Source of the DNA: a bacterium
Lineage (GTDB): Bacteria > UBA8248
NCBI GenBank assembly: GCA_965213625.1
Contig: CBDBZU010000004.1
Coordinates: 1,632,001-1,696,000, forward strand
Reading direction: 5' to 3'
DNA length: 64,000 nucleotides
The notes beneath the pieces are model-generated. The model saw only the letters and a program-made list of their open reading frames with translations, was not told the origin of the DNA and ran no database searches. A program made the position numbers and the translations under genes. Shown here one piece after another: positions 1-16,866 of the stretch; position 1 is the first letter of the stretch, and each line of letters opens with the position of its first letter.

Positions 1-237
1 GCGCGGGTGAACCCCCGGCACAGGAGCTACCGTCTCTCCCAACTCGCTATCGGCGCGGTGCGTCTCGAACGCATCGCGGCGAAATGGGCCGCCGCCCGCC
101 TCCCGAGCGAAAAGGCGCGCTTTAGCTGCTCGGCCCTCGCCACCCCCGATGCGGGCGACACCCGGCCGATCTCGCAAGATTTGCTCAGGAAGCTGCGCGA
201 CGCTGCACCGTATCGCCTGGCGGAGGCGCCTGTATGA
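1..237 (+). CDS. Terminase large subunit, C-terminal end of the ATPase portion (lambda gpA-like; 5'-truncated by window edge)
   Basis: Frame 1 is open from base 1: ARVNPRHRSYRLSQLAIG...KWAAA...RFSCSALATP resembles the gpA-type (G/S)Y-x-L-S-Q-L...W...F-x-N-x-x-L-G-x-P segment. The stop overlaps the next ATG (ATGA 234-237). Lies directly upstream of the nuclease domain and portal. Confidence 0.6.
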   Translation, partial: ARVNPRHRSYRLSQLAIGAVRLERIAAKWAAARLPSEKARFSCSALATPDAGDTRPISQDLLRKLRDAAPYRLAEAPV

Positions 238-881
238 GCGCGGCACCTCGCTTCTGCGGAATCGACACGGGCGATCGCTGCGCGCTTGCCGTGCGCGAAC
301 GGGGGGAGGATCGGCCCGCCCGGTGGATTTATTTTGAAGCGCCTCCTGTTGAACGCCTCATCGAGCGCTGCCGCGCCGTGTTCTCGGCCCTGGGTGTCGA
401 GGCCTTCGTGGTCGACGGCGGACCCCATACCCTGGCCGCGCGCGCGGTGTACGACTTGAACCCCGAGGGCGGCTTCATCTGGCGGCACACCGAGGGCGAG
501 ATGCAGACCAAGGGCGTCTCGTTTCTGGGTGTTGAGCGCCGCCATGTGCGGATGAACCGAGAGGACTTGCTGGATCACCTCGTGGAGGAGTTTCACGAGG
601 GGGCCGGGCGGGTCTTGCTGCCGCAGCCCGGAGATACAGGGGAGGAGGCGCTACTGGCCGAGGTGGAGCGTCACCTGATGAATTTGAGGAAAAAGCCGCG
701 CATCCGCTCCTCCGGGGAGACGGTGCTGGCGTATGAGCGGAACGAGAACCATTTCGGCTTCGCCTGCGCCTATGCGCGGCTGGCCGAATCCCTGGTGCTG
801 AGCGAGGGAATACTGGCCCCACTCGCCGGGGGAACGGTGATGCCGCAGGCTTTTCACAAGCGGATGCTCAAGAGGAGATGA
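234..881 (+). CDS. Terminase large subunit nuclease (RNase H-fold) domain as a separate ORF
   Basis: Motifs FCGIDTG, FVVDGGP, MNREDLLD, ENHFGFACAYA. GGAGG RBS 8 nt upstream. Translationally coupled to the portal gene. Confidence 0.7.
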   Translation: MSAAPRFCGIDTGDRCALAVRERGEDRPARWIYFEAPPVERLIERCRAVFSALGVEAFVVDGGPHTLAARAVYDLNPEGGFIWRHTEGEMQTKGVSFLGVERRHVRMNREDLLDHLVEEFHEGAGRVLLPQPGDTGEEALLAEVERHLMNLRKKPRIRSSGETVLAYERNENHFGFACAYARLAESLVLSEGILAPLAGGTVMPQAFHKRMLKRR

Positions 882-2233
882 AAATGGAGAGTGTAAAAAG
901 GGTGAAGGCAGCCGGGCGGAAATCGGGGGCAGGGAGAAAAGGGGATGCCGCGCAGCGTGCAGGGCGAATGAGCGCAGAGATTGACCCGGATGAGCGAATC
1001 TGGCGGCCTCTGGGGGAGGGGCGCGGCGGAGTTTCGCCCTATGCGCACGCGCGCATGCAGTCGTTGGCGTATGAGTTGTGGCTCACGAACTTGATGGGTC
1101 AGCGCCTCATCGAAATCGTGACGGATCACGTCGTGGGCGAGGGAATAAGCTGGCACGGGGAGGATGAGCGCGCATTAAACGTCGTAAAGGCGTTCTGGAA
1201 CGATCCCGTGAACCAGATGGATATCCGCTTCGAGCGGCTGGTCTCTGAACTCGGCATCTTTGGGGAGCTCCTCCTGCCCGCCGCCGTCTCGCGCTTCGAG
1301 GGGCGCGTCCGGCTGGGCTACGTCAGTCCCCGGCTTATAGAAGAGGTGGTGACGGACCCGGACAACTGCGCTCTGCCCATCGGGGTCGTCCTGCGCGCAC
1401 AGGGGCCGGGCGGTGTGGCTCGTAATGGCAAGCGTATCCGGACGGTGCTGGGTGGCGATCCGCGCGGCTATCTGAGCGCCTCCGCCCAAAAGGAACGCGC
1501 GCGCTTCACGGACGGGGAGGCGTTCCTGTTCCAGATCAACAAGGCGAGCGACGCCGCGCGCGGCGCTTCGGACCTGCTCGCCGCCATCGATTGGATAGAC
1601 ACCTATGAGCGCTTCATCTTCGACACCGTGGAGCGCGCGCGCCTGCAGAACAGCTTCATCTACGACGTCACCCTGAAGGGCGCAGGCCCCGAGAAGATAG
1701 CCGAGTGGCTCGCCGAGAACGGCGTCGCGCCCAAACCCTCGAGCGTGCGCGTGCACAACGAAAAAGAGGAGTGGCAGGCCGTCTCGCCCGACTTGAAAGG
1801 AGGCGAGTCTGGTGCGCAAGGCATCGCAAAGATGATGCGGGGCCTGCTTCTGGGCGGCGTGGGCGTTCCCTCCCATTGGTTCGCCCAGGGAGAGGACGTG
1901 AACCGCGCCTCGGCCGAGTCGATGGATCAGCCCACGCTCAAGAAGATGACGCGCCGCCAGCGCACCGTGCGCCACATATTACAGGCCATGGCCGACAAGC
2001 AGTTGGAAGAAGCCCACCGCGCAGGCGCGCTGCCCGAAGAAGCGCTGCGCTCGGGCGTCTCTCCCGTTCTGCCGGATATCTCCGTCCGCGACACGGAAAA
2101 GATGTCCGAGGCGCTCCTGCGCGTCAGCACGGCGCTGGAAACGGCGACCTCACGCGGCTGGATGAGCGACGATGCCGCCGGCAAGCTCATCACCCACCTC
2201 GCGGGCCAGTTCGGTATGAATCTGGAGGGGTAG
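878..2233 (+). CDS. Phage portal protein
   Basis: 451 aa with NLMGQRLIEIVTDHVVGEGI, ELGIFGELLL, FLFQINKASDAARGASDL, GVPSHWF...NRASAESMDQPTLKKMTRRQ. Follows terminase in canonical order. Confidence 0.85.
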   Translation: MKMESVKRVKAAGRKSGAGRKGDAAQRAGRMSAEIDPDERIWRPLGEGRGGVSPYAHARMQSLAYELWLTNLMGQRLIEIVTDHVVGEGISWHGEDERALNVVKAFWNDPVNQMDIRFERLVSELGIFGELLLPAAVSRFEGRVRLGYVSPRLIEEVVTDPDNCALPIGVVLRAQGPGGVARNGKRIRTVLGGDPRGYLSASAQKERARFTDGEAFLFQINKASDAARGASDLLAAIDWIDTYERFIFDTVERARLQNSFIYDVTLKGAGPEKIAEWLAENGVAPKPSSVRVHNEKEEWQAVSPDLKGGESGAQGIAKMMRGLLLGGVGVPSHWFAQGEDVNRASAESMDQPTLKKMTRRQRTVRHILQAMADKQLEEAHRAGALPEEALRSGVSPVLPDISVRDTEKMSEALLRVSTALETATSRGWMSDDAAGKLITHLAGQFGMNLEG

Positions 2234-2240
2234 GGGTTCT

Positions 2241-3341
2241 CTAGTCCAAGAACTCCCGCGCAGATTTGATCGGCGTTCCGTCTTTTCTGGTGATGGCTCT
2301 GGTGACGCTCAGGTTGTAGCTCGCCGTCAGGACGGCCTGCATGTGGCGGCCGTGGCCGCCTGCTATGACGATGAGGATGTCTTCGGGCCTCGGGACGATG
2401 GGGGCCATGTCCTCATCCTCATCGAGATTCACGAAAGGAGCGAGCGGCGTCATGTCGAAGCCGCCGCGGTCGCGCATCAGGCGAATCGGCTGGCGCGCGT
2501 TCTCGAAGATGAACTGGGAAACATCGGCCTTCGTCCACCCCTGATCCGAGAGCCATGTGGCGGCTTCCGCGGTCAGGACGAGCATCTGCTCGCTCGGCAG
2601 CCCGCTCCGGTAGACGCCGTTCGCGCCGAGGTGGCTCATGGCCGAAGCCGCCGTGCCCAGGTACTTGTGGGCCGTCTTGCTCACCAGGTCGTTCACGTTG
2701 TGGGGCGACTCCGCGCAGAGCATGGTGACGGCGGAAGTATCGGGCGCAAGGCCTCTATCCACATGAAAGGAGGGCCAGGGGCTTCCCTCCTCGTCCTCGC
2801 CGATGGTGTAGGAGTATTTGCCCGGATGCCCGTGGGTGGCCATGTCCGTCACGCCGGGGATGCCGCCGCCGGCGTTCATCATCAGGAGCCTCACCGCGCG
2901 GCCGAGCGTCGCGTTCGCGCGCCGGCCCTGGCCGAACACGTTCTGGCGGCAGTTGACCTCCAGTTCGTTTCGGATAGGCCCGTGGACGATCATCAGGTGC
3001 GCGCCCGGATGGGTGGTCGTCTGGCGGCCGTAGAGGTTGTAGGCGGGTTCCGTCATGGCCTGCATGGCGGCGATGAGTACGGGCAGGTATTCAGGTTTGC
3101 AGCCCGCCATCACGGCGTTGATGGCGATGACTTCCGCCGTGGCGGGTGCGTTCCGTGGCGGAACATGGGCGATGACGTCGCCCGGCGCGTAGTCCGTGAA
3201 GCGCAATGTTTCTGCGACGCGCTCCTCGGTCGGCGGGATGATGGGCAGCCCGTCCGTCCAGCCCTCCTCGTAGAAGTGCTCGTATATCGCGCCTGCGTCT
3301 TCATCGAGTGCTATCTGGCGGGCGGGTTCTGGCGCGTCCAT
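2241..3341 (-). CDS. Conserved protein usually encoded next to or fused with UGSC (seleno)proteins
   Basis: GWTDGLPIIPPTEERV, IAINAVMAGCKPEYLPV, RANATLGRAVRL, GHPGKY motifs. ATG at 3341 lies just after the UGSC stop. Confidence 0.8.
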   Translation of the reverse strand: MDAPEPARQIALDEDAGAIYEHFYEEGWTDGLPIIPPTEERVAETLRFTDYAPGDVIAHVPPRNAPATAEVIAINAVMAGCKPEYLPVLIAAMQAMTEPAYNLYGRQTTTHPGAHLMIVHGPIRNELEVNCRQNVFGQGRRANATLGRAVRLLMMNAGGGIPGVTDMATHGHPGKYSYTIGEDEEGSPWPSFHVDRGLAPDTSAVTMLCAESPHNVNDLVSKTAHKYLGTAASAMSHLGANGVYRSGLPSEQMLVLTAEAATWLSDQGWTKADVSQFIFENARQPIRLMRDRGGFDMTPLAPFVNLDEDEDMAPIVPRPEDILIVIAGGHGRHMQAVLTASYNLSVTRAITRKDGTPIKSAREFLD

Positions 3342-3348
3342 GCCGATA

Positions 3349-3903
3349 TCAAGCGCTCGCCTGCGTGAGGGCCGCCGCGAGATGCGCGCTTGCTCTCGCC
3401 GACATCTCATCCACCTCCTCGCGCTTTCTGCCCGCAATGGGGTGGGGAAGTGCGACGAGGGGAAGATCGCTCATCTTGTGCAGCTTGGTGAGTTGCTTCG
3501 CGTATGTCTCAAACGCGTCGGTGACGATGGTGACCGTGGCCAGCCCTCTTTTCTCTAAAGCGACGCTGTCGTGGATACTCCACGATGTGCACGAGCCTCA
3601 GTCGCCGAGTGCGGAAACAACGGCGTCGCACTCTCCTTCCACCTGCTCCATGAGGGCGGGCGATGCGCCGCTCACGGATTCCTTCCGGTAGCGCACAACG
3701 CGCACGCCCGGGAACTGTTTTTCAAGCGCGGCGCCCATGACGCTTAAAATCTTATCGGTGAAATCCTTCGTGTTGTTGATGAGGCCGACGCTCATGCCGT
3801 TCAGGCTTTCTGGCCGCGCCGCCATGACGGCGCTCGCGCCCGGAGCCTCCGCCACGGGTTCGTAGACGAGAATTTTTTCCTTTTCCTTCGTCATTTCACT
3901 CAT
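3349..3903 (-). CDS. UGSC-family selenoprotein (Sec at TGA 3598-3600)
   Basis: Reads ...VVSALGD-TGA-GSCTSWSIHDSVALEKRGLATVTIVTDAF...LPHPI...QASA-stop(3349-3351). GGAGG RBS before ATG 3903. Hairpin downstream of the TGA. Confidence 0.9.
3569..3585 (-). promoter_or_regulatory. Putative bacterial SECIS element
   Basis: TCGTGGA-GTA-TCCACGA, a perfect 7-bp stem with the loop G 20 nt after the TGA. Confidence 0.75.
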
Positions 3904-4053
3904 GTCCACCCTCCAGTGAATGATTGTCGGGGAGGTCGAAATCTCCTGTCTCGGTCATTTCCAGCCATTCTAACCGAAGCGGCGGCCCGAGGGAAAACCA
4001 TGGTTTTTACCCGGTTAGGCTTCGGGGCGTCACTCACGCTGAATCTAGGTTCT

Positions 4054-5055
4054 TTACCCGATCCCCCGAACATCCTTCGCCCAGGCGTTCATGAAGACCG
4101 TCCTGTCGGGCAGGTTGTTGTTGATGCGGAGCCCCCTGACGCCCAGGTTTTCCAGGTCTTCCAGCCTTTTCCGGCATTCGGCGGGTGTGCCGACGATGGC
4201 GAATCGCTCCGCCAGGTAGTCCCTCAGGCCGTACTCGTCGACTAGGCCTGCGTTGTTCGACTTGTCCATGAAGCCGTGCTCCGAGGTCTGGTATCCGTCT
4301 CTGAGTGCGCGGATGCCGGATTCGAGTTCGGTGGGGATTCGCTTGTTCTCCAGCGTGAAGGCGAACGAGTGGTGCGCGCTCGCGGCGAGGGCGGTGCGGA
4401 TGTCTTCGCGGGCGTGCTCCCCGTCCGCGTCCACGTGGGCGTCCACCAGCCACCATAGGTCAAGTTCTTCCACCCTCCGGCCTGATTTCTTGGCGCCCTC
4501 GTCGATGAAGGAGAGCGTGTCCGCGATGACTTCTGGAATCAGGCCCGTTCCGATGATGACGCCGTCGGCCACCTCGCCCGCGAGGCGCAGCGTCTTGGGG
4601 CCTTCTGCGGCGATGTGAATAGGCACGTGGGCTTTGTGCCAGCTCAGCCGGGCGTTATTCCCTTTGTACTGCGCGCTTCCATCTTCGAGCATGCCTCGCA
4701 CGGCGAGAATGTATTCGCGCATCTCGGCGAGCTTCGCGGGCCTTAATCCCAGATTTAGTACGGCGCTGTCGCCCGTGGCGATCCCCCAGAAGGCGCGCCC
4801 GCCGGAGAGTTCGCTGATGGTGCCGATGGCGCTTGCTGCCACCGCCGGGTGGCGCGTGACGGGGTTCGTGACGCACGGCCCGAAGATAATCTCGCTCGTC
4901 TCCATCGCGCATATCGCACAGGAGACGTAGACTTCTCTGTAAAGGGACTGGGTGTCGGGGATGAATACCGCGTCGAAGCCGAGTTCTTCCGCGCACTTAC
5001 ACCAGCGGGCGAATGAATCCGTGTCGGGCGGTCTGAATGAAATGCCGTGTCTCAT
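4054..5055 (-). CDS. LLM-class (Mer-like, probably F420-dependent) oxidoreductase
   Basis: AEELGFDAVFIPDTQSLYRE, GPCVTNPVTRHP, AAEGPKTLRLAGEVADG. Confidence 0.85.
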   Translation of the reverse strand: MRHGISFRPPDTDSFARWCKCAEELGFDAVFIPDTQSLYREVYVSCAICAMETSEIIFGPCVTNPVTRHPAVAASAIGTISELSGGRAFWGIATGDSAVLNLGLRPAKLAEMREYILAVRGMLEDGSAQYKGNNARLSWHKAHVPIHIAAEGPKTLRLAGEVADGVIIGTGLIPEVIADTLSFIDEGAKKSGRRVEELDLWWLVDAHVDADGEHAREDIRTALAASAHHSFAFTLENKRIPTELESGIRALRDGYQTSEHGFMDKSNNAGLVDEYGLRDYLAERFAIVGTPAECRKRLEDLENLGVRGLRINNNLPDRTVFMNAWAKDVRGIG

Positions 5056-5072
5056 GAAGGTGTCCTCTCAGG

Positions 5073-6077
5073 TTACTTGCTCCGGCTGATTATCTCGCGG
5101 CCCCACGCCCGGATGAAGGCGGGCTTGTCGTGCACGTGGGCGGCGATCCTCAAGTTCTCGACGCCGAATGAATTCATGTCCGCTATCTTCTGCCTGCACT
5201 CTTCGGGCGAGCCTGCGATGGCGAAGCGATCGAGCAGGTATTCGCGTAGGCCGAGCCTGTCCACGAGTTCGGCGTTCGTCTGCTTGTCCACCATCTCGTG
5301 CTCGTGGAACGCATATCCTTTTTTGAGTGATTCAACGGCGGAGAGGAGTTCTTTGGGAATCCGCTTGCCCTCGAGCGTGAAGCGAAAGGCGTGGTGCGCG
5401 CTCGCGGCCAGCGCCATGCGGATTTCTTCGCGTGCCTGTTCGCCGTCATCGCGCACGTTCACCTTCGCGAGCCACCAGATGTCCAGATCGCTCAGCTTGC
5501 GGCCCGATTTCCTGGCGCCCTCTTCCAACCAGGTGAGGGAATCGGCCGCGACTTCGGGCGTGAGGCCGGTACCGATAGTGACGCCGTCCGCAATCTCGCC
5601 CGCAAGCCGGATGGTGCGCGGTCCTTCGGCGGCGATGTAGAGGGGGATGCGCTTTTTGTGCCAGTTCAGGGTACAGGGCTTTCCCCGGTAGTGGGCCGTA
5701 CCCTCCTCCAACATCCCGCGCATGGCGAGCACGTAGTCTCTCATGTCGTCCACGCGGCCGGGGCGCAGGCCCAGGTTCAATACGGCGCTGTCACCCGTGG
5801 CGATTCCGAACAGCGCGCGGCCGCCCGAGAACTCATCCACCGTGGCGATGGCGCTCGCCGCCGTCGCGGGATGCCGCGTGAGGGGATTGGTGACGTTGGG
5901 GCCGAGCAGGACGCGCTTTGTGTTCGCCGCGCAAATGGCGCACGAGACGTAAAGCTCCCGATAGAGCGATTGTGAGTCCGGCACCCAGACGACGTCGAAG
6001 CCCGCTTCTTCCGAGAGTCGGCACCAGTGCGCGTAAGTCTCGGGCGCAGGGGGCAGCATGGCGATTCCGTGTTTCAT
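5073..6077 (-). CDS. LLM-class (Mer-like) oxidoreductase, tandem paralogue
   Basis: SEEAGFDVVWVPDSQSLYRE, GPNVTNPLTRHP, AAEGPRTIRLAGEIADG. Start MKHGIAML after AGGAG. Confidence 0.85.
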   Translation of the reverse strand: MKHGIAMLPPAPETYAHWCRLSEEAGFDVVWVPDSQSLYRELYVSCAICAANTKRVLLGPNVTNPLTRHPATAASAIATVDEFSGGRALFGIATGDSAVLNLGLRPGRVDDMRDYVLAMRGMLEEGTAHYRGKPCTLNWHKKRIPLYIAAEGPRTIRLAGEIADGVTIGTGLTPEVAADSLTWLEEGARKSGRKLSDLDIWWLAKVNVRDDGEQAREEIRMALAASAHHAFRFTLEGKRIPKELLSAVESLKKGYAFHEHEMVDKQTNAELVDRLGLREYLLDRFAIAGSPEECRQKIADMNSFGVENLRIAAHVHDKPAFIRAWGREIISRSK

Positions 6078-6091
6078 TTCGAAAATATCTC

Positions 6092-6997
6092 CTATTCTGG
6101 AACTCTCATCTGCACGCCGCCCGCGCGCTCTTCCTGGAGCGTCATGGCGCGTCTCGCATCTTCCTCCCCCCATCCCCGGTTCAGGCCCGTGATAAGCTCC
6201 CCGTAAGCGATGTTGCCAATCGCCATGGGTACGTCGTGCTCGCGGGCGAGTTGGAGTGCGAGGCCGACGTCCTTCACCGAGCCCTTCATGGGAAAATGCG
6301 GCTCGTCGAATTTCCCCTTGAAGAAAGTCTCGGGGAAGATGAAGTGAAAGTGCACGCCCCGGCCTACCGCGCCGTTACGAATCGTCTCGGCCAGGACATC
6401 GGGCGCTGCGCCCGCCTTGACGCCCAGGGTGTAGCATTCCGCCGCGAGGGCCTGAATGCCGTAGCTCATGCAATTATGGGCGAGCTTGCACACGGTGCCG
6501 GTTCCGATGGGGCCGGTGTAGGTGGGGCGGTCTCCCATGGCGTCGAAAAGGGGCTTGCAGCGCTCATACATCTCCTCCTCACCCCCCACCATCACGGCAA
6601 GGCGGCCCGTGTTCGCGCCGATGGTGGAGCCGCTCACGGGAGCGTCGAGCATGTGCGCGCCCGCTTCTGAGAATTTCTCGTGTATGCGGCGGACGATGGC
6701 GGGGTATCCCGTGCTCAAGTCGACGAAGACTTTCCCCGCGCTGATGCCTGCAAGAATGCCGTTCGGCCCCGTGGCGACGCTCTCGACTTCCTTGGGTCCG
6801 GGCAGCGAGGTGAAGATGATCTCGCTCGCGCGGGCCACTTCTTCGGGGGAATCCGCCCAGAGCGCGCCTCTTTCTAAGTGGTCAGCCGCCGCTTCCGGGG
6901 CGATGTCGTGAACGACGAGCTCATAGCCCGCCTTCTGGAGGTTGGCAGCCATGCCGGCCCCCATGTTTCCCAGTCCGATAAATCCGATTTTCATCAT
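6092..6997 (-). CDS. NAD(P)-dependent beta-hydroxyacid dehydrogenase (MmsB/GarR family)
   Basis: KIGFIGLGNMG, DAPVSG, KLAHN motifs. Confidence 0.9.
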   Translation of the reverse strand: MMKIGFIGLGNMGAGMAANLQKAGYELVVHDIAPEAAADHLERGALWADSPEEVARASEIIFTSLPGPKEVESVATGPNGILAGISAGKVFVDLSTGYPAIVRRIHEKFSEAGAHMLDAPVSGSTIGANTGRLAVMVGGEEEMYERCKPLFDAMGDRPTYTGPIGTGTVCKLAHNCMSYGIQALAAECYTLGVKAGAAPDVLAETIRNGAVGRGVHFHFIFPETFFKGKFDEPHFPMKGSVKDVGLALQLAREHDVPMAIGNIAYGELITGLNRGWGEEDARRAMTLQEERAGGVQMRVPE

Positions 6998-7199
6998 CGA
7001 TTCCTTTTTGGGTTGCGAATTTCGCAAAGTGGCGTCTCTTTCGTTCCAGGCTCCGCATGTTGGAGACGAAAAAGGAGAATCTGTAAAATGAATGCAATCC
7101 ATTCCAAAAACAAGTTAAGATGAGGGGAATCAGGGAAAATATAGACGCAGAGAAGAGAAAACATCGGCGGAAAGGTGGAACTCAACGGGAGATGCGGAA

Positions 7200-7673
7200 A
7201 TGGGGACACGGGAAGCTTTTATGAGAAAGGCGATATCGCTCGCTTCTCAAAACGTGAGGGAAGGACTCGGCGGGCCTTTCGGGTCCGTCGTCGTGAAGGA
7301 TGGCGAAATCATCGGCGAGGGTACGAACCGGGTGACGTCATCTTGCGATCCCACAGCCCATGCCGAGATGATCGCCATACGGGCGGCCTGCGCGAAACTG
7401 AAGAATTTCGATTTGTCAGGCTGTGAGATATATACGAGCTGTGAACCCTGCCCGATGTGTTTGAGCGCAATTTACTGGTCGAGACTCGACCGTATGTATT
7501 TTGGAAACTCCATCGTCGAGGCTGACGCCATCGGGTTTTCCGATGAATTTCTCTACAAGGAAATCGCCCTGCCGGTCGCTGACAGAAAGCTCGAAGCAAC
7601 GCGGCTCCTGGAAGATGAAGCCCTCGAATCCTTCAATCTATGGGCGCAGATGGAGGACAAGATTTCCTACTGA
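7200..7673 (+). CDS. guaD: Guanine deaminase (cytidine-deaminase fold)
   Basis: GGPFG, DPTAHAE, YTSCEPCPMCLSAIYW, IGFSDEFLY. Confidence 0.85.
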   Translation: MGTREAFMRKAISLASQNVREGLGGPFGSVVVKDGEIIGEGTNRVTSSCDPTAHAEMIAIRAACAKLKNFDLSGCEIYTSCEPCPMCLSAIYWSRLDRMYFGNSIVEADAIGFSDEFLYKEIALPVADRKLEATRLLEDEALESFNLWAQMEDKISY

Positions 7674-8970: not shown

Positions 8971-8975
8971 CCTTC

Positions 8976-9047: not shown

Positions 9048-10358
9048 TTAAAAGTTCGAGGACTCCGGCGCCTCGGTGGAGGCGCTCGATTTCGTCATTT
9101 TCTCAGGCGTCGGCGCCTTGGCGAGGTTCAATTCCAGGGCCTTGGGTTCCGCGCTCAGGAATTCAAGACCGTTCGGCAGGTCGATGTTGCGGCCCGAAAG
9201 TGTGCGCGAATGCGCGCCGGGCGTCATTTTGGCGAGGTTCACGTTCACACGCAGGCGGGTGGCGTCGATGTAATTGAGCAGATCGCGCCTGCCCCTGATG
9301 CGGATTTTGACTTCTTTCGCCGCATCGGCGGGCAGGACGACGCCGTTTGGAACGTTGTAATAATGGACACGGACGCTGAATTCCTCCTCCACCTTGCTTT
9401 CGAGCTGCGGGAAGAAATTCTGCGGGTTCTGGTTCTCCTGCCCGCCGAGCGACCAGAGGAAAAAGACGGCGGCCAGCGCGGCGAGCTTGGGCCGCCAGTT
9501 CGTGAAAACGTGGCGGAGCGAGATGCGCCCCATCGACTGGCCCGACTCGCGGGCAGCGCGCAGACGCGTGGTAAGCCAGGAGGCGAGTTCTTCCTCATTT
9601 TCTATCGTCTTTGTTTGGCTGCCTTCCACGCAGGTAATCTCTCCGCGTTCCTCGGAGATGACGATCGCCAGGGCGTCACAGCGCTCGGTGATGCCCACCG
9701 CCGCCCTGTGGCGCGTGCCGAACTCGGGCGGCAGGGCGCGGTTATCCGAAAGGGGCAGAACGCATCCCACGCGCGAGATCTTGTTCTCGCGAACCACGGC
9801 GGCGCCGTCGTGGTAGGGCGCACCCTTGATAAAAATGGTTTCCAGCAGCGCCGGCTGGATGTCCGCCTCGATCTCCTCGCCCGGGCTTCTCAGGAGGGAG
9901 TCGGTCAAATCCCGGTGTTCCACGACGATGATGGCGCCCATATGCTTCGCAGCGAGCGAAAAGGCGGCACTGGCGATGGTGGCGACGCTCTCGTCCGGCA
10001 GGCGGATGCGCATTGCCCGGCGCAGCAGGGTGGAGAATCTGCGCACCGGGTTGAGCTGGAAGAATATCTTCTGGATTTCGCCGTGGAAATTGATGAGAAA
10101 CAGGATGAGCACGGCGATCCAGATGGCCCACAGCAGGAACGAGGTCAGGTGGAGTCCGGCTGCCTGGGAGGCGAGATAGATGAGCCACACCGCGAACACG
10201 CGAACGAGGAGGCGCATCGCCTGAGTGCCCTTGAAGCGAATATAGACCTGGTAGAGCAGGAACCACATAATCCCGATGTCGAGCATATGGTTCCAGGAGA
10301 GTTTTTGGAAGAAATTCAAGGCCGGTTGAGCGACGCCCCACATGAGATCAAACCTCAT
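9048..10358 (-). CDS. cdaA: Diadenylate cyclase CdaA fused to a C-terminal TM + YbbR (CdaR-like) domain
   Basis: Three N-terminal TM segments, YHDGA and GTRHRAAVGITE DAC motifs, then NWRPKLAALAAVFFLW and a YbbR-like VKIRIRG...VNLAKMTPGAH...LPNGLEFLSAEP domain. Confidence 0.9.
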   Translation of the reverse strand: MRFDLMWGVAQPALNFFQKLSWNHMLDIGIMWFLLYQVYIRFKGTQAMRLLVRVFAVWLIYLASQAAGLHLTSFLLWAIWIAVLILFLINFHGEIQKIFFQLNPVRRFSTLLRRAMRIRLPDESVATIASAAFSLAAKHMGAIIVVEHRDLTDSLLRSPGEEIEADIQPALLETIFIKGAPYHDGAAVVRENKISRVGCVLPLSDNRALPPEFGTRHRAAVGITERCDALAIVISEERGEITCVEGSQTKTIENEEELASWLTTRLRAARESGQSMGRISLRHVFTNWRPKLAALAAVFFLWSLGGQENQNPQNFFPQLESKVEEEFSVRVHYYNVPNGVVLPADAAKEVKIRIRGRRDLLNYIDATRLRVNVNLAKMTPGAHSRTLSGRNIDLPNGLEFLSAEPKALELNLAKAPTPEKMTKSSASTEAPESSNF

Positions 10359-10703
10359 CCGTCTTGTTCAGGGGGCGGTCTTTTTTGCTCGGCGAATCCA
10401 GAAAATTCCTGAGTGGCGGGCGAAGTATCCAGAATTGGTAGACGCCGGGACCACCCGCATCGTCCGCAACTCCAGAATTTTCCGTATGTTACCGCATTTA
10501 CTTAAAATTTACAATTAGCAAAATCAAAATTCCGCAAAAAAAGACGCCATATGCGCATTTCCCCGCATTTGCGCGGCCCGCATTCGAGACTCCTTGCCCT
10601 AGATTATCGCCGTTACACCCGCTCCCAGTTTCACCGGGGCGGCGGCCTCCGGCGGACCGCCGGGAATCGAAACCCTGAAAGACCAGCGAAAAAGGAGTTT
10701 CCC

Positions 10704-12782
10704 TTGAAAAAATGGATGAACCGCATTTGGGCGCGGGCCGAGGCGCAGAAGGATTCTCACCCATTGAGGTTGCATGGCCACCTCATCCGCGCGGTTGCGA
10801 AAGATGCCCAACCGTCGGGCGAAGCCTGGGATTTCGAAGTGCTGATCGCCAGGGCCGGTTACTCGAGGGACGGAGAGTGGTTCCTGCCCCGCGAGGTTCT
10901 GCGCGAGGCCGCTCCCCTGTTCGAGGGCGCGCAGGCGTTCGCGAATCACACGGGATCGGGTGGCCCCGACATCAAGAACCTGGTCGGCTGGCACCGCGAA
11001 GTCCGCATGGGCGAGGAAGGGCTGTTGAGTACGTTTGCGGTTTCGCGCTCAGCACCCTGGTTTCAGGCGCTGGCGCACGATGCGCTGGCCCGGAGCCTCG
11101 ATGAGCCCTTTGGCTTTTCCTTCGACGTGCTCGCGCAGGCGGAGTTCCGTGAGGAGGCCGATGGGCTCGTTTTGCATTTCGAAAAGATTCTGGCGGTCCA
11201 CTCCGTCGACGTTGTGCACAAAGGCAAGCTCGGGGGCGGGATTCTGGGTCTCGCCGCCAATCATTCCACTAAAACGGAGGTGAAGATGTTCGAAAAGCTC
11301 GGAAAAAAACTGAAAAGCGTGGCGCCCGAATCGGGCAAGAGGCTCGGCGATGCATGGACGCCGCAGCAGTTCCTCGCGGCCTGTGAAGACGCAGGTCTCG
11401 AACTGGACTTGAAGGAAAAAGGAGGAAACCCCATGGAAGATGGAACCGAAACCGGGACTGCGGCTCGCAAGGTGCTTGCCCAGAAACTCGCAGCCTCCAC
11501 GCTGCCCGAAGCCGTTCAGGAGAAGATGCGCGCCCAGTTCGGGGAAGGGAGCTTCTCGGAGGAGGAAATCGAAGAGGCGATCCGCATCGAGGCGGCCACG
11601 CTGGAAAAACTCACGGCAAGCGGCGCGCTTCGTGGTTTCGGCGCTCGCGCGGAGGTGATGCGTGATGAGGCGGACCGTAAGAAAGCGGCGCTAGACGGGA
11701 TATGGAATTCGCGCGAAGAGGCGGTCGAGGGTGAGCGTCCCTATCGTTTCATGAGCGAGGCGTTTCAGGATTTTACGGGACATCGCCTCACCCCGCGCCA
11801 ATTTTTTGCCGAGACGTTCCACTACCACCGCGCCGCCGAGGACTGGAACGGGGTGCGCCGACTCTCCGCCTCCTTGCAGACGAGCACGTGGGGCGAGGCG
11901 TTCGGCGATTCCATCCGCCGCGCCATGTTGCGCGACTTCCGGGACGAGCGGTTCCACCAGTGGAAGAAGATCGTCTCCTCGGTTACGCCCGTGAAGGATT
12001 TCCGCACGAACCGCCGGGTGCGCGTCGGCGGTTACGGCGATCTACAGAAAGTCGCCGAACAGGCCGCTTATCCGGCGCTCACCTCCCCGACGGATGAGGA
12101 GGTGACGTACGCCGTGGCCAAGCGCGGCGGCGTGGAGGATCTCACCTGGGAGATGATCCAGAACGACGACATGGGCGCGATTCGCATGATCCCCCAGCGA
12201 CTCGCCCGCGCGGCCCAGCGCACCCTGAACGGCTTCGTGTTCGATTTCCTCACCTCCAACGCGGATATCTACGACGGCGACGCGCTATTCCACGCCAACC
12301 ACAACAACACTTCCGCGAACGCGCTCACGTACGACAACGTCATCGCCGGGGTGAAGACGATGGGCCAGCAGACGTTCTACGGAGAAGACGGCGTCGAGGT
12401 GGCGGCGCAGGCGCGGCCCCAATACCTCGTCCACCCGACTGAACTGCTCGAAGAGGCGTTCGACGTCACCCAGTCTCCCGTCAAGGTCGTTGCGGGCGGA
12501 AACTCCAACCAGCCGAGCTTCATCAACCGCCTGGGCATGGAGCCCTTGTGGGTGCCCGAACTCACCGACGCGAACGATTGGTACATGGTCGCCGACCCGA
12601 GCCTCATGGACACCGTCGAGATCGGTTTCATGGACGATATGCGCGAACCCGAGCTGTTCATCGAGGACAACCCATCCGCTGGCAGTGGATTCAGCGCGGA
12701 CAAGATTCGCTACAAGATCAGGCACGTCTATGGCGGAGCCGTCCTGGACTTTCGCAGTTTCTATCGTGGTGCGCCCGCCTAG
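10704..12782 (+). CDS. Prohead protease-scaffold-major capsid protein fusion (HK97 fold)
   Basis: N-terminal protease motifs LREAAPLFEGAQAFANH, FGFSFD, HSVDVVH...GG. C-terminal capsid motifs VKDFR, TWEMIQNDDMGAI..IP..LARAA, YDGDALFHANHNN, WYMVADP, IRYKIRHVYGGAVLDFRSFY. TTG start after AGGAG. Confidence 0.9.
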   Translation: MKKWMNRIWARAEAQKDSHPLRLHGHLIRAVAKDAQPSGEAWDFEVLIARAGYSRDGEWFLPREVLREAAPLFEGAQAFANHTGSGGPDIKNLVGWHREVRMGEEGLLSTFAVSRSAPWFQALAHDALARSLDEPFGFSFDVLAQAEFREEADGLVLHFEKILAVHSVDVVHKGKLGGGILGLAANHSTKTEVKMFEKLGKKLKSVAPESGKRLGDAWTPQQFLAACEDAGLELDLKEKGGNPMEDGTETGTAARKVLAQKLAASTLPEAVQEKMRAQFGEGSFSEEEIEEAIRIEAATLEKLTASGALRGFGARAEVMRDEADRKKAALDGIWNSREEAVEGERPYRFMSEAFQDFTGHRLTPRQFFAETFHYHRAAEDWNGVRRLSASLQTSTWGEAFGDSIRRAMLRDFRDERFHQWKKIVSSVTPVKDFRTNRRVRVGGYGDLQKVAEQAAYPALTSPTDEEVTYAVAKRGGVEDLTWEMIQNDDMGAIRMIPQRLARAAQRTLNGFVFDFLTSNADIYDGDALFHANHNNTSANALTYDNVIAGVKTMGQQTFYGEDGVEVAAQARPQYLVHPTELLEEAFDVTQSPVKVVAGGNSNQPSFINRLGMEPLWVPELTDANDWYMVADPSLMDTVEIGFMDDMREPELFIEDNPSAGSGFSADKIRYKIRHVYGGAVLDFRSFYRGAPA

Positions 12783-12815
12783 TCGCGTGGCGATTGCCCT
12801 TCTTAAGGAGAAGCC

Positions 12816-13157
12816 ATGTCCGACAGGCGAACCCACACGATAGTCCTCGCTCCTCCCGCGACCAGAGTCGCCGCGGGAGGCAGCACGGCGTTCGAAGTGA
12901 GCCGCTTCACCGAGGCGCTCTTGTTCATCGACGTAACGGCAGTTTCTGGCGATTCGCCCAAGCTCGATTTCGAGGTGCGAACCGGGCCGGAGGATGATGA
13001 AGTCGCTTTCGAGCATACCAAATCTGCGCAAATCACCTCGGCGGGTAAAACCCTCGTCAAGCTCACGAACATTGGCCCCTGGATCAGGCTCGCGTGGTCC
13101 GTCGGCGGGGAGGAGGCTTCGTTCACGTTCGAGGCCAAGCTCGCGCTGAAAACATGA
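12816..13157 (+). CDS. Putative capsid decoration/cement protein (small beta-rich)
   Basis: 113 aa, all-beta pattern (DVTAVSGDSPKLDFEV...NIGPWIRLAWSVGG..FTF). Directly after the capsid gene with a TAAGGAG RBS. Confidence 0.55.
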   Translation: MSDRRTHTIVLAPPATRVAAGGSTAFEVSRFTEALLFIDVTAVSGDSPKLDFEVRTGPEDDEVAFEHTKSAQITSAGKTLVKLTNIGPWIRLAWSVGGEEASFTFEAKLALKT

Positions 13158-13200
13158 GACCACCTGCATCTGGTGAGCGAGACGAGAGGAGAAAACAGGA

Positions 13201-13911
13201 ATGGCAAGCAGGCAGACGATCATCAAGGAGGTGAAGGTGTTGTTGAAGACGGGCGCGCTGCCCCGGGAGTTCGGGGCTGAGGAGGCGGACTTCGCCGATT
13301 TGGTGAACGCGGCGCTCACACGCTACAGCAAGGACAGGCCGCTCGTTTCGTTCGCCGATTACGCAGGCGATAGCGAGTCGTTCGATTTTCCCCTGCCCGA
13401 GGACTGGGATGACTCCCTCTCCTTCATCCGTGAGGTGGAATATCCACAGGGGGAGAGAAAACCCTCCTACCTGCGGAGGAGCGCCTGGATCATCTATGCC
13501 AAAGGAACCCCGGCGGCGAGGTTCAGGCTCATGTACTTCGCTCCTCAAATGGGCCACACGCTTCGCCTGTTCTACACGATCAAACACACGGCAGATGACG
13601 AACACACCAGTGTTCCCGAAAACGATTTGACCGCCGTGGCCTGGCTGGCCGCCGCGGAGGGCTGTCACCTTCTGGCCCGCCGCTTCGCCCAGTCCTCGAA
13701 CCCGACCCTCGCAGCGGATTCGGTGGACTACCAGAGCAAGTCTTCGGAATACACGCGCCTGGGCCGGGAGCTCGAGCGCAAATACCAGAACCATCTCGGC
13801 CGCAAGGAAGGCGAAGTGGCGGGCGCTGCAGGCGCGTCTCTCGATTGGGACATTCTTCTTTCATTGGCGCGCGGTGAGTACTTCACGCACGGCGCCTCCG
13901 GGGATCGCTAG
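13201..13911 (+). CDS. Putative head-tail adaptor/connector protein
   Basis: Position in the cluster. Helical N-terminus, beta middle, C-terminal DSVDYQSKSSEYTRLGRELERKY typical of adaptors. Confidence 0.6.
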   Translation: MASRQTIIKEVKVLLKTGALPREFGAEEADFADLVNAALTRYSKDRPLVSFADYAGDSESFDFPLPEDWDDSLSFIREVEYPQGERKPSYLRRSAWIIYAKGTPAARFRLMYFAPQMGHTLRLFYTIKHTADDEHTSVPENDLTAVAWLAAAEGCHLLARRFAQSSNPTLAADSVDYQSKSSEYTRLGRELERKYQNHLGRKEGEVAGAAGASLDWDILLSLARGEYFTHGASGDR

Positions 13912-14433
13912 GTGGGGAGGAGGGGCGGAGTGTTCCGTCGATATGTGGCGCTTGGAGAATTGCCGGAGGTGCCGGCAATCGCATGGGAAGAGGTTTTTCT
14001 CCTCGCGCACGAGGCGATGCGCGAGATCATCGGAATGCTCAGGCGCGAGGTAATGGCGCGAACGCCCATCGGCGCGAGCGGAAACCTCAGGGGCAATATC
14101 TACACCGGAATAAAAGGAATAAGCCCTCAAGTGTTGCGCGGCGTGGTCGCCTCGCGCACCCCATACGCCAGGTACGTGGAATTCGGGCGCCGGGCGGGCG
14201 GCAGAATGCCGCCTTGGAGGGAGGGTACGTCCCTGTATCGCTGGGTGGCCCACAAACTGGATCCGCCCGATGGGCAAATCGAGAGCGTGTCCTTCCTCGT
14301 TGCCCGAGCGATCGCACGGCGCGGGATACCGGCAAGCCGTATGTTCGCGCGCGCCTTCGAGCAAAATCAAAGCCGAATCGATCGGCGTATTCGTGAACTG
14401 CTCGATGAGATTGCGAGGTTAATAGGTGGCTAA
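13912..14433 (+). CDS. HK97 gp10-like neck/tail-completion protein
   Basis: TPIGASGNLRGNI, TPYARYVEFG, GIPASRMFARAFEQ. Confidence 0.8.
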   Translation: MGRRGGVFRRYVALGELPEVPAIAWEEVFLLAHEAMREIIGMLRREVMARTPIGASGNLRGNIYTGIKGISPQVLRGVVASRTPYARYVEFGRRAGGRMPPWREGTSLYRWVAHKLDPPDGQIESVSFLVARAIARRGIPASRMFARAFEQNQSRIDRRIRELLDEIARLIGG

Positions 14434-14959
14434 ATCACGATACAGAGAAATTGGCGACACCATTTTGGCGGAAATATCGAGCGTACCGGAGGCAGGGCGG
14501 GTGCACGCCTATCAGCGCTGGTCGGCCGATTTGGGGAAATACCTGGACCATTTCCGTTGGGAGGCGGGCGGCGGCCTCGCCCAGATCAGGGGTTGGGTGC
14601 TGACGCGCGAGAGAGCAGGGGAGGAGGCTGCATCGGTCGGCTCTAGCGCGTCCGGCGGCTTCACGCCCTCAGGCCTCAGCAGGCGAACCCACACGTTCTT
14701 GCTGTTCGGCATCATGAGCGCCGAGGACGCGGTGGGCAGCGAGGTGGCCTTTCAGGATCTGATCGAGGAGATTTGCGACCGCTTCAGGGACGACAGGGCG
14801 CTACGCCTCCTCGATGATTCAGGCGCCCCGCGCGTCCGCTCCCTGGAGCGTCTTCAGCCTCCGCAGGTGGATCTGATTGAACTGAGAACATTTGGAAACG
14901 TGCTTTGCCACTACGTCGAAATCAGGCTTCGGGCAATAGAGCGGATTCGGCGGGATTGA
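14426..14959 (+). CDS. Putative tail terminator protein
   Basis: Position between the gp10-like and tube genes, size, and the pattern FQDLIEEICDRFR...LCHYVEIRL. Confidence 0.6.
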   Translation: MAKSRYREIGDTILAEISSVPEAGRVHAYQRWSADLGKYLDHFRWEAGGGLAQIRGWVLTRERAGEEAASVGSSASGGFTPSGLSRRTHTFLLFGIMSAEDAVGSEVAFQDLIEEICDRFRDDRALRLLDDSGAPRVRSLERLQPPQVDLIELRTFGNVLCHYVEIRLRAIERIRRD

Positions 14960-15032
14960 GTGAAGCAAATGAAATGAAACCGGCGGAGGATGTTTCTTCG
15001 CCTTAAAAAAATTCAAAGGAGGAGAACAGCGA

Positions 15033-16172
15033 ATGGGCGATACGATATTGATGGATCGGCAAACTATCGGCGCGACGGAAGAGAAGGAACTTGTGGCGGA
15101 TTCCGCCGACGCCTCCACCCTGGTGGACGCCGCGCTCGCAGAGGATGATGACTTCTGGAACGGCTCGGTGCTGCGCACGATTCGGGGGATGGGTGTTGGC
15201 CAAAAAAGAAAGGTGAGCGATTACGACGCGGCCTTGGACACGCTCACGGTGGACACCGCCTGGGACGCCATGCCGGCGGCGGGCACGGCCTACCTACTGG
15301 ATAGGCCCGCTGTTTCTTCGGAACTGTTCCGGGCGGGCAACTTCACCCATGAGGTCAGCGTTGAGCAGCTGGAACGCGCGGTGAAGGATGCGAGCCTCTC
15401 GCCTTTTCCCTCGATTCCAGGAAAACGCTCCGCGCAGATTTCCTTTTCCACCGAGTTGCGCGGTTCGGGAGTTCCCGGAGTTGCGCCCGATTACGGACTG
15501 TTGTTCAAGGCGTGCGCGATGAGCGAGGCCATCGTGGAGGGCGCTTCCGTCACCTATGCGCCCGTGTCCGATAAATCGGACTATACGAGAGTCTGCCTGA
15601 CGACGTTCATCGACGGACTGCGGGTGATGTATCTGGGCTGCATGGGGAGTTTTTCCATCAACTGTCCCCTGGACGGCGTTCCCACGGTGGATTGGGAGTT
15701 CGAGGCGGCTGATTTCGAAGTGAGCGATGCGCCGCTCCCGGGCGGCGCGTCCTACGACGAGCAGACGCCCGAATCCATCCTCATGAGCGGCTTTTCGTTC
15801 GGCGGATTCCATTTAGACGCGGCGAACATCCGCTTTGCCATGAACAACGAAGTGGTGCTGCGTCAGAGCGCCAACGCATCGGGCGGGCACGTGAACGCGA
15901 TGGTGACGGGCCGTGCGCCCTCCGGCTCCTTCGACCCAGAAGCAGTGCTCCAGGCCACAGACGACGTGTTCGCCGATTGGGAGAGCGGCGCACAGCTCCC
16001 CCTGCGCGTACAGATCGGTCACAGGGCCGGGAACATCTGCACCATCACCGCGCCCAAGTGCCAGTATTCGGATATGGGATTTTCCGACCGCGACGGCCTG
16101 CTGACTTATGATGCGCCCTTCCGCCTGGCCCGCGACGCGGGTGATGACGAGATTTCCATCGTTTTCACCTAG
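15033..16172 (+). CDS. Non-contractile tail tube protein with inserted N-terminal accessory domain
   Basis: ISFSTELRGSG...PDYGLLFKAC, VTYAPVS, GCMGSFSI, VTGRAPSGSF, GDDEISIVFT C-terminus. AGGAGG RBS. Confidence 0.8.
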   Translation: MGDTILMDRQTIGATEEKELVADSADASTLVDAALAEDDDFWNGSVLRTIRGMGVGQKRKVSDYDAALDTLTVDTAWDAMPAAGTAYLLDRPAVSSELFRAGNFTHEVSVEQLERAVKDASLSPFPSIPGKRSAQISFSTELRGSGVPGVAPDYGLLFKACAMSEAIVEGASVTYAPVSDKSDYTRVCLTTFIDGLRVMYLGCMGSFSINCPLDGVPTVDWEFEAADFEVSDAPLPGGASYDEQTPESILMSGFSFGGFHLDAANIRFAMNNEVVLRQSANASGGHVNAMVTGRAPSGSFDPEAVLQATDDVFADWESGAQLPLRVQIGHRAGNICTITAPKCQYSDMGFSDRDGLLTYDAPFRLARDAGDDEISIVFT

Positions 16173-16244
16173 CCGTTATTCGACAGGCGGCTTCTTCTTC
16201 ATTTTGGCCAAGTATTGGTTCAGGGAAAACGAACGGGAGGAATC

Positions 16245-16637
16245 GTGGAATTATCAGAATACAGAAACCATGGCCGCAAGCCCATCACGCTGCCTTCGGG
16301 GCTCAAGGGCTTCGTGCGCGCGCCGAATCTCCTGGACATGGCGGCGTATCCAAAGTTATTAGCCGGCGCTTCAAACGGTGCTGCGGGCGAGGAGGAGCAA
16401 TACGCGCTTACCGGGGAGTGGGTGCACTGCATCCTGAGGCGCTGCTTTGTTCCCGAGCGCGGCTCGATGACGGAAAAAGAACCGGGGCGTTGTATGCCCG
16501 ATGAACTCAGCATCCACGAACTCGCCCCGGCGGATGCGGATGCGATTTTCACAGCCGTTACGGCCCTGCAGAACGAGACGGCGGCTCCTGTCCCTGAGGA
16601 GGGCGCGCCGGGCGGCGATACGTTTCCGGCGGCGTAG
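16245..16637 (+). CDS. Tail assembly chaperone (gpG-like)
   Basis: GGAGG plus GTG start, ITLPSGLKGFVRAPNLLDM. Follows the tail tube gene. Confidence 0.7.
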   Translation: MELSEYRNHGRKPITLPSGLKGFVRAPNLLDMAAYPKLLAGASNGAAGEEEQYALTGEWVHCILRRCFVPERGSMTEKEPGRCMPDELSIHELAPADADAIFTAVTALQNETAAPVPEEGAPGGDTFPAA

Positions 16638-16824
16638 GAAAGAGCTTCTCGGGGTCATTCACTTTCAGGCGAAGACCTATGGCCTCCCCCCGCACCTGTT
16701 GGCTCGATGCTCCTGGGAGGAGTTCCGCTTCAACCAGGAGGTGCTCGAAGCCGGTCTGGCGCTGGAGCGGATGAGTCGGCGGGAGCCGGGGAAAAACACG
16801 AACCTCAGACGATTCAAGAGCTAA
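16627..16824 (+). CDS. Tail chaperone extension (gpT-like), probably expressed by programmed frameshift
   Basis: The +1 frame overlapping the gpG stop reads RRRRKELLGVIHFQAKTYGLPPHLL...EFRFNQEVLEAG. No own RBS or start. TTT-C site at 16623-16626. Confidence 0.55.
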   Translation, partial: RRRRKELLGVIHFQAKTYGLPPHLLARCSWEEFRFNQEVLEAGLALERMSRREPGKNTNLRRFKS

Positions 16825-16866
16825 AGAACCGGCTCTCCCGATACGGGGAGGGCCGGTTCTTATTTG
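16824..16866 (+). terminator. Rho-independent terminator ending the head-tail operon
   Basis: 16-bp stem AAGAACCGGCTCTCCC / GGGAGGGCCGGTTCTT followed by ATTT. Confidence 0.8.

Follow-up and report, generated by a model that had tools for sequence, protein, structure and literature searches.

To our knowledge, only a handful of gene transfer agents (GTAs) are known, and almost all bioinformatic detection of such systems rests on similarity to RcGTA of Rhodobacter capsulatus. RcGTA and the RcGTA-like GTAs of Alphaproteobacteria, including the Caulobacter GTA, are siphovirus-like head-tail gene sets without replication or integration genes; they are spread over several loci, the endolysin gene being separate from the structural cluster, and are inherited vertically under purifying selection. 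The same features are shared by the system considered here, which comprises approximately 20 genes at four chromosomal loci on contig C4 of the analyzed bacterial genome, G000 (other compared genomes are designated by G and a number), and lies partly in the 64,000-nucleotide window G000:C4:1632001-1696000. Comparative genomics suggests that this is probably a domesticated, vertically inherited set of genes for a phage particle of the GTA kind, derived from the late region of a Mu-like siphophage. Two publications describe the RcGTA 'genome' as multilocus (PMC5026251; PMC11841831), and the latter states that GTAs arose several times, that they tend to be multi-locus, and that outside the known lineages it is still an unsolved problem to distinguish them from remnants of prophages (PMC11841831). 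A search of a limited literature collection yielded no publication linking GTAs to the lineage studied here, whose metagenome-assembled genomes (MAGs) are labeled Nitrospinota / Tectomicrobia and whose relatives occur in sequencing runs labeled sponge metagenome.

With RcGTA, however, the system has no sequence family in common. RcGTA has a capsid of family PF05065 and a portal of family PF04860, whereas the capsid described here belongs to PF25209 and has a long N-terminal region, and PF05065, PF04860, and the large-terminase nuclease family PF20441 have no match in the whole G000 genome. The large terminase subunit (TerL) is of the gpA type (PF05876) and split, and the small subunit (TerS) is of the Mu gp27 type. 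Moreover, the head module itself is broken up by host genes, and the host is from a different phylum. With capsid, portal, and terminase all drawn from other families, the system is not a member of the RcGTA family, in line with the first-pass annotation of the window, which had proposed an architecture unlike that of RcGTA.

Mu-like siphophages (the Pseudomonas phage JBD30 / D3112 type and Mae-JY22) have in common with the system a TerS of the Mu gp27 family, a capsid matching that of Mae-JY22, and a tail hub matching the JBD30 baseplate. Mae-JY22 encodes Gam, and its genes follow the order capsid, three small genes, a tube-sized gene, chaperone-sized genes, tape measure, and tail tip. The chromosomal order in G000, that is, endolysin, TerS, TerL, portal, capsid, and tail, corresponds to that of the Mu late genes. 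In contrast to these phages, host genes (15 and 8.5 kb) split the head and packaging genes, the tail tip is 2.25 Mb away, and inheritance is strictly vertical; the clusters of relatives also differ in having TerL of another type (phrog_2-type in G032). A live Mu-like prophage would be a single contiguous, packagable genome with transposase, repressor, and early genes, whereas the present genes occupy four loci interspersed with host genes.

BaGTA of Bartonella, VSH-1 of Brachyspira, Dd1 of Desulfovibrio, and VTA of Methanococcus voltae are separately domesticated phage-derived particles as well, some of them encoded at divided loci. They are defined by particles and packaged DNA, whereas the present system is defined only through comparative genomics. 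PBSX-type defective prophages and tailocins are also phage-derived and chromosomally fixed. However, tailocins are not known to encode a capsid, portal, or terminase, and PBSX forms a single contiguous cluster, whereas in our case the set is dispersed and conservation is among the highest for the head and packaging genes.

Genomic Arrangement of the System

The four loci are located on contig C4 as follows. Locus A includes a GH24 endolysin gene (1613602-1614015), a 118-amino-acid (aa) gene, and the Mu gp27-type TerS gene (1615696-1616268). Locus B (C4:1631179-1634233) consists of the split gpA-type TerL and the portal, locus C (C4:1642704-1648866) contains the capsid, neck, tube, and chaperone genes, and locus D (C4:3893912-3900628) encodes the tail tip, a membrane protein, and a tape-measure-like protein. 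Locus A is situated 15-18 kb upstream of the terminase, loci B and C are separated by approximately 8.5 kb of host genes, and locus D is 2.25 Mb away, or approximately 1.9 Mb in the opposite direction should the contig be circular; both distances are far above the capacity of any known tailed-phage head. Given this spacing of the tail locus and the head loci, a single particle would not be expected to hold the gene set, which therefore probably could not spread as a virus. A gene set that probably cannot be packaged as one unit, in a genome with no other capsid, portal, or TerL nuclease family, follows the pattern described for GTAs in PMC11841831 and PMC5026251.

Structural, packaging, and lysis genes of phage type were identified for TerS, TerL, portal, capsid, neck, tube, chaperone, hub, tape-measure-like protein, and endolysin, and the predicted content is that of a DNA-filled virion with a non-contractile tail and its own lysis enzyme. 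Host genes flank all four loci. No integrase or replication genes were found among the annotated genes adjoining the loci, these flanks being the part examined; similarly, no transposase, repressor, Gam, or early genes were seen beside any locus, and a genome-wide search for them was not made. GC content is 0.58-0.66 in the phage-like blocks and 0.51-0.66 across the window.

The first-pass annotation, which had only the window, recognized intact phage head-tail blocks dispersed among host genes and of host-like composition. Both blocks were found, with GC content inside the range of the window; the description holds, and the system is larger than was initially noted. It also saw no integrase, lysis, tape-measure, or baseplate gene. 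The absence of an integrase extends to the annotated flanks of all loci, and the window does lack genes for a tape measure and a tail tip; the tail-tip, tape-measure-like, endolysin, and TerS genes reside elsewhere in the genome, at loci A and D, as that annotation had suggested looking for. Locus D was detected by searching open reading frames (ORFs) from the clusters of relatives and phage against the whole G000 genome, and locus A was detected by the motif search described below.

Conservation, Co-loss, and Selection

Within the genus, the system is nearly universal. The capsid gene is present in 20 of the 22 other same-genus species genomes, with 77-91% identity and one copy in each. TerS and the tail hub t403 of locus D were each found in 20 of 22 as well, t403 being an open frame of 401-403 aa in every carrier. 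The portal was found in 21 genomes, one of the copies being a 28-residue remnant (in G010), and it is full-length with 81-95% identity in 19. The endolysin is the least widespread, with 18 of 22 genomes; it was not found in G009, G010, G015, and G018. The gene order and the host flanks are the same at the head locus in six fetched genomes, at the tail locus in five, and at the TerS locus in five.

Two genomes, G009 and G010, lack all four loci and retain the flanks. At the head locus of both, the downstream host gene abuts cdaA; at the tail locus, the M23 peptidase gene abuts cinA; and the TerS and endolysin genes are gone from between their neighbors. The M23 peptidase gene beside the tail locus was counted as a host gene, since it is kept in these two genomes. 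In G010, traces of the system persist: the portal is represented by 26-28 residues and TerS by 25, and a single copy of the upstream motif remains where the terminase promoter used to be. The host tree places G010 as the sister of the G000 clade (100/100) and puts G009 together with G001 and G007 (84/88). Thus, G009 and G010 are not sisters, and two independent losses are needed. The loss of four dispersed loci together on two occasions argues that they work as one unit.

The strength of selection was estimated as the ratio of nonsynonymous to synonymous substitution rates (dN/dS), using pairwise NG86 comparisons of G000 with five relatives for the fetched loci only. For 16 system genes dN/dS is 0.08-0.48, and dS relative to the closest relative, G020, is 0.22-0.55; the respective values for the flanking host genes are 0.03-0.49 and 0.16-0.66. 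Across the relatives, dS of the system genes ranges from approximately 0.2 to 1.0, matching the host flanks. The portal, capsid, and TerL genes (dN/dS 0.08-0.25) are among the best conserved, and selection on the packaging and head genes is as strong as that on the tail genes. The tree of the system, built from 16 concatenated genes (5180 columns), has at least 98% support at every inner branch, and its topology is the same as that of the host tree, built from 12 flanking genes (3757 columns), for the six shared genomes. The system genes are intact, are under purifying selection, and are inherited together with their host flanks.

These results bear directly on the first-pass annotation, which had proposed a vertically inherited GTA-like system and had named patchy presence, trees incongruent with the host, dN/dS near 1, and missing tail genes as signs of the opposite, together with conserved synteny with cdaA and the downstream operon as a sign in favor. 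In every respect the outcome supported the proposal: presence is near-universal in the genus, the synteny is conserved in six genomes, the topologies coincide, dN/dS is well below 1, and the tail genes exist. The GTA function itself is still suggested by inference from these patterns.

Shared Upstream Motif

The units of the system are preceded by a common 21-bp tandem element, GCGCATTTSCCCGCATTTGCG, composed of two repeats 10 bp apart (CGCATTTSC repeats), which was derived from k-mers conserved upstream of the first gene of each unit. In G000, it occurs with no mismatches 104 bases before the start codon of TerL (C4:1631075) and 131 bases before that of the capsid; the latter copy, GCGCATTTCCCCGCATTTGCG (window positions 10553-10573, plus strand), is one of four perfect copies in the genome. 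The first gene of the tail locus, t450, has a site with one mismatch 128 bases before its start codon, and the unit of the 118-aa gene and TerS has a site with two mismatches at approximately 155 bases. The site of the endolysin has three mismatches and is much further upstream. The coordinates of motif sites in G000 include C4:1615165 and 3893764.

The arrangement is reproduced in other members of the genus. The head-locus stretches of G020, G013, G001, G007, and G015 contain exactly two motif sites each, before TerL and before the capsid; the copies in G019 are weaker. The tail-locus stretches contain a site before t450 and one beside t564, the gene of the tape-measure-like protein. In G001 and G007, an insertion parts t564 from the other tail genes, and the motif site there is just upstream of t564. 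In the approximately 50 kb examined in each of G020, G013, G001, G007, and G015, the sites of the system units are the only ones, save one beside t564. The motif is absent from the clusters of G041, G032, and G027.

Genome-wide, we found 73 sites with at most four mismatches (4, 10, 25, 15, and 19 sites with 0, 1, 2, 3, and 4 mismatches, respectively), compared to one site in the reversed genome and two in 2 Mb of Markov-random sequence. This distribution suggests that the motif may represent a global regulator or a promoter class rather than a private switch. The sites are often paired or clustered, for example at C4:410149-410376 and 418149-418373. Identification of the motif as an SOS box was rejected, as no site occurs near lexA (C4:1215591-1215776) or recA (C4:2098374). 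A sigma-54 promoter was also considered; in a by-eye comparison with the consensus, the spacing does not fit. A near-perfect site is found at C4:487446 and is followed, within approximately 3 kb, by two ORFs whose N-termini, judged by eye, resemble the arm-binding domains of phage integrases.

Packaging and Head Genes of the Window

The ATPase part of TerL (352 aa, plus strand) matches PF05876 GpA_ATPase (1.1e-18) and phrog_675. It begins at C4:1631179, 821 bases before the window, behind GGAGGA, and its last 78 codons occupy positions 1-237 of the window. The nuclease part (215 aa, 234-881, plus strand) matches positions 360-550 of phrog_675 (3.5e-11). The two halves are in different frames with an ATGA stop/start overlap at 234-237. 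This frame change is kept in G020, G013, G001, G007, G019, and G015 from the same genus and in G024 and G023 from two other genera, and both halves are under purifying selection (dN/dS 0.11-0.31). The portal (451 aa, 878-2233, plus strand; phrog_10963, 3.1e-47) follows. Thus, of the initial description of an open terminase-portal block at 1-2233, the gpA type of the terminase, the portal, and the common strand stand; the terminase begins outside the window and consists of two ORFs.

Upstream of the terminase are genes for YajQ, Amt, an adenylate cyclase, and an ABC transporter. They are of host type; neither an integrase nor the complete prophage upstream of the window, against which the first-pass annotation had cautioned, is present there. 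The yajQ gene was not counted as a part of the system, since it is partial in G013 and was not seen in the G019 stretch.

Locus C, in which the first-pass annotation had placed capsid, gp10, tube, and overlapping chaperone ORFs at 10704-16824, begins with the major capsid protein (692 aa, 10704-12782, plus strand), read from a TTG start at 10704 behind AAGGAG. It matches PF25209 (1.6e-44), phrog_29592 (3.3e-130), and phrog_4523 (9.5e-51), with an HK97-type domain at approximately residues 390-690; its best phage match is Microcystis phage Mae-JY22, with 32.6% identity over 88%. For residues 1-389, we found no Pfam match and no protease signature, only phrog_29592, a family of unknown function, and the proposed fusion of protease and capsid was not borne out.

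The capsid gene is followed by four genes of the head and neck on the plus strand. The 113-aa putative head or neck protein g113 (12816-13157) has a weak match to phrog_9522 (0.0066) and no Pfam match; its identity in relatives is 63-86% (dN/dS 0.19-0.38). The 236-aa protein g236 (13201-13911), a candidate head-tail connector by position only, has no family or PDB match, and its homologs follow the capsid gene in G032, G027, and Mae-JY22 (dN/dS 0.09-0.31). The next protein (173 aa, 13912-14433) is an HK97 gp10-like neck or tail-completion protein (PF04883, 1.2e-5; phrog_5, 3.1e-13). The 177-aa protein g177 (14426-14959), possibly a neck protein or tail terminator by position only, also has no family or PDB match; its homologs occupy the same position in G032, G027, and Mae-JY22 (dN/dS 0.14-0.23). 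Family matches thus agree with the initial labels for the capsid, the gp10-like protein, and the tube; the labels of decoration protein, adaptor, and terminator find no counterpart among family or PDB matches. More generally, searching the PDB by sequence turned up nothing meaningful for the capsid, t564, t403, g236, g177, the tube, and s118, the 118-aa gene of locus A.

The tail tube (379 aa, 15033-16172, plus strand) matches PF18906 Phage_tube_2 (5.3e-12) and phrog_290 (1.5e-19). The gene at 16215-16637 (140 aa, plus strand) has no family match and is assigned to the G-like part of the tail assembly chaperone by its position after the tube gene; its identity in relatives is 74-91% (dN/dS 0.09-0.19). 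A putative T-like extension (16642-16824, plus strand, within the overlapping ORF 16501-16824) lacks a start codon and is read in frame +1 with respect to the G part. Only the part beyond the G stop is conserved in G001 and G007 (residues 48-105). The frame of the extension is +1 rather than the more usual -1, and there is a TTT-C site shortly before the G stop. The capsid-to-chaperone unit ends in a terminator-like hairpin at 16825-16866 (plus strand), which was identified by eye and has a 16-bp stem with one G-T pair, as reported initially; it does not appear in the automatic terminator scan because its T-run is short.

Host Genes between the Portal and the Capsid

The host-gene insert (2241-10358) comprises a 398-aa gene of unknown function, a UGSC selenoprotein fragment, two F420-type LLM oxidoreductases, a 3-hydroxyacid dehydrogenase, a TadA-like deaminase, an OsmC-like selenoprotein fragment, and CdaA-YbbR, in accordance with the earlier description of approximately 8.5 kb of ordinary host genes (selenoproteins, LLMs, deaminase, cdaA). 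These genes are in the same place in six same-genus genomes and are kept also in G009 and G010, which lack the phage-like blocks.

The 398-aa gene (2241-3437, minus strand) has no match in Pfam, NCBIfam, or PHROG. A segment of approximately 150-250 bases within it (window positions 2693-2993) matches eight other places in the genome with 68-73% DNA identity, and therefore the gene belongs to an uncharacterized multi-copy family. The stretches 3598-3909 and 8105-8338 (minus strand) give partial matches to models of UGSC-family and OsmC-related (seleno)proteins, which suggests that they may be selenoprotein genes whose ORFs are cut by in-frame TGA codons.

Lysis, Small Terminase, and Tail Genes

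At locus A, the endolysin (C4:1613602-1614015) is of the T4-type GH24 family, with phmmer matches to T4-type phage lysozymes (4e-10). The Mu gp27-type TerS (C4:1615696-1616268) matches PF11985 (6e-7, above the cut-off) and phrog_426 (5e-10 over the whole length) and shares a unit with s118. A 438-aa gene lies between the endolysin and TerS (C4:1613955-1615271; L009:1955-3271, minus strand) and shows a weak match to DprA_N (0.0014, below the cut-off). It was rejected as a part of the system, being fragmentary in G001, G007, G019, G009, and G010, carriers included.

Locus D consists of t450, t177, t403, t435 (313 aa), t231, o160p (a 127-aa membrane protein), and t564 (564 aa). None of t450, t177, t403, t435, t231, and t564 has a Pfam match, and o160p has only sub-threshold ones. 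Structure modeling identifies t403 as the predicted tail-tip hub. In its AF2 model (pLDDT 56) residues 20-170 are well predicted, and the top Foldseek matches are siphophage tail-tip hubs, including those of JBD30 (8rk3_b, 3e-5), DT57C, Chi, T5 (pb3), and the RcGTA virion chain 6tba_8A (E 2e-3), the latter being one more feature in common with RcGTA. The leading result of the Atlas search is TipJ/Phage-tail_3 (0.95). The tape-measure-like protein t564 matches phrog_1535 (5e-8), and its homolog in G024 is directly before t450, in the usual position of a tape measure. For t450 (AF2 pLDDT 50), Foldseek gave only matches to CBM32 / F5-F8-type sandwiches (E 0.006-0.05), and a tblastn search against phages gave none.

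The o160p gene (C4:3898391-3898774; L047:14391-14774), located between the tail genes and t564, encodes an N-terminal membrane helix and a coiled coil. It is conserved and was lost along with the system in G009 and G010; it possibly encodes a holin or a lysis accessory protein. A weak match of o160p to the 'small terminase' phrog_7344 (0.0012) was dismissed in view of the membrane helix and the identification of the real TerS.

Distribution outside the Genus and Possible History

At the level of the family, the capsid is present in 33 of 42 genomes and in eight of nine genera. In G041, from another genus, the portal, capsid, tube, and chaperone genes are contiguous and are followed, after a 4-kb gap, by the tail tip; this cluster is a few kilobases from the same downstream host operon as in the window. 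The right-hand side in G043 is the same as in G041. In G023, L071, and L072, the capsids are truncated or deleted up to the tail-hub gene.

Outside the family, distant relatives from the same class, G032 and G027, contain the capsid, neck, tube, tape measure, and tail tip in one cluster. The distribution there is patchy: G027 has the cluster and G028 does not, and G032 has it and G031 does not. With their different type of terminase (the phrog_2-type TerL of G032), these clusters look like ordinary prophages.

In the simplest scenario, a Mu-like siphophage late region would have become fixed close to the base of the family. Its parts would then have been separated by host genes, and in the genus of the window the tail-tip block would have moved 2.25 Mb away. 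Some lineages would later have lost or degraded the system.

Proposed Function and Alternative Explanations

If the system functions as a GTA, a host signal would cause a subpopulation of cells to transcribe all units, and heads and non-contractile tails would be assembled. The terminase, composed of TerS and the two TerL halves, would fill the heads with chromosomal DNA, the endolysin would release the particles, and these would deliver DNA to related cells. The more specific proposal, for which we see the balance as evenly poised, is that this is an independently evolved GTA family, the first in the Nitrospinota / Tectomicrobia-labeled lineage that includes sponge-associated bacteria. Its origin would be a Mu-like transposable siphophage, no later than the base of the family; it would then have been split into four loci, each of which acquired the same host motif, and TerL would work as two separate polypeptides.

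Run X5, labeled viral metagenome, was left aside: its short low-depth contigs of a close relative cover all 30 bins of window positions 1-20000, with no difference between host and phage-like genes, a pattern that contamination by cells would equally produce. No RNA run was listed as containing the capsid-to-chaperone stretch. A number of observations weigh against the GTA reading. The trees and dN/dS estimates cover five to seven of the 22 same-genus genomes. No prohead protease and no holin were identified, the membrane protein of locus D being only a candidate for the latter, and TerL is split into two halves that would have to assemble. Terminases of the gpA family are typically cos-specific, which fits random packaging poorly. 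The structural models of the tail proteins are weak (pLDDT 56 and 50, Foldseek TM-scores at most 0.34). The motif occurs host-wide, at 73 sites, and therefore is not the mark of a private regulon. The endolysin was not found in the system-positive genomes G015 and G018. The tube gene of G013 is interrupted by approximately 1.8 kb (L043 and L044 joined, 23209-24989), and the portal of G015 is in three pieces with one TGA (G015:C31:16116-17434); each may reflect decay or an assembly error in a single carrier. In a wider sample, the capsid is found in none of four members of a genus with small genomes, and truncated or fragmented copies occur in G023, G061, G062, G050, and G054. In G041, the terminase is 11 kb away and in four pieces, and no homolog of the 354-aa gene between its portal and capsid was found in G000.

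The main alternative, which we nevertheless consider fairly unlikely, is a domesticated particle with another function, such as a killer or lysis-linked particle, a vehicle that releases DNA or some other cargo, or a decoy for related phages; the virion genes would then be maintained for reasons other than DNA exchange. Selection, co-inheritance, and co-loss fit any selected role of a particle, whatever its cargo, and it is a host-wide motif that heads every unit. On the other hand, conservation is among the highest for the capsid, the portal, both terminase subunits, and the neck, components that a tail-only killer would not need, and the predicted genes are those of a siphovirus-like virion filled with DNA. 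Under another reading, the set would be a defective Mu-like prophage, broken apart by rearrangement and now in decay without any current role. This would account for the broken and truncated copies listed above, for the two full losses within the genus, and for the missing protease. Such decay is improbable given the open frames kept across the genus, such as t403 in 20 carriers, dN/dS of 0.08-0.48 at dS of 0.2-1.0, as in the host flanks, the disappearance of all four loci jointly and twice rather than piecemeal, and the conservation of the promoter-side motif at every unit.

The structural genes could also be maintained for another mobile element, a satellite or a phage without virion genes, with the particles serving as selfish vehicles. 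A gpA-family terminase, usually site-specific, and the integrase-like ORFs, recognized by eye from their N-termini, downstream of the motif site at C4:487446 are compatible with this explanation, which we hold to be quite improbable: no such element is found beside any locus, the genome has no other capsid, portal, or TerL nuclease family, and strictly vertical inheritance along the host tree is unlike a mobile partner. Finally, G000 is a metagenome-derived assembly with estimated contamination of 5.16%, and a misassembly or a chimeric MAG joining phage contigs to host genes had been raised for the interval 2233-10704 in the first-pass annotation. The chance of such an artifact is very nearly negligible, since the locus junctions recur in more than 15 independent assemblies, single-contig chromosomes among them, and a public-run contig, probably from the source sample, covers window positions 1-19294 with no differences.

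Significance

The argument for a GTA in this lineage is a sequence-independent case built from five lines of evidence: synteny, host-like dN/dS and dS, congruence of trees, repeated co-loss, and a shared motif. The system raises the question of how a split gpA-type terminase would package DNA. It offers a regulon motif that can be tested, and it shows the stepwise fragmentation of a prophage late region across genera. If the GTA interpretation is true, GTAs would have originated independently once more, in a lineage that is uncultivated.

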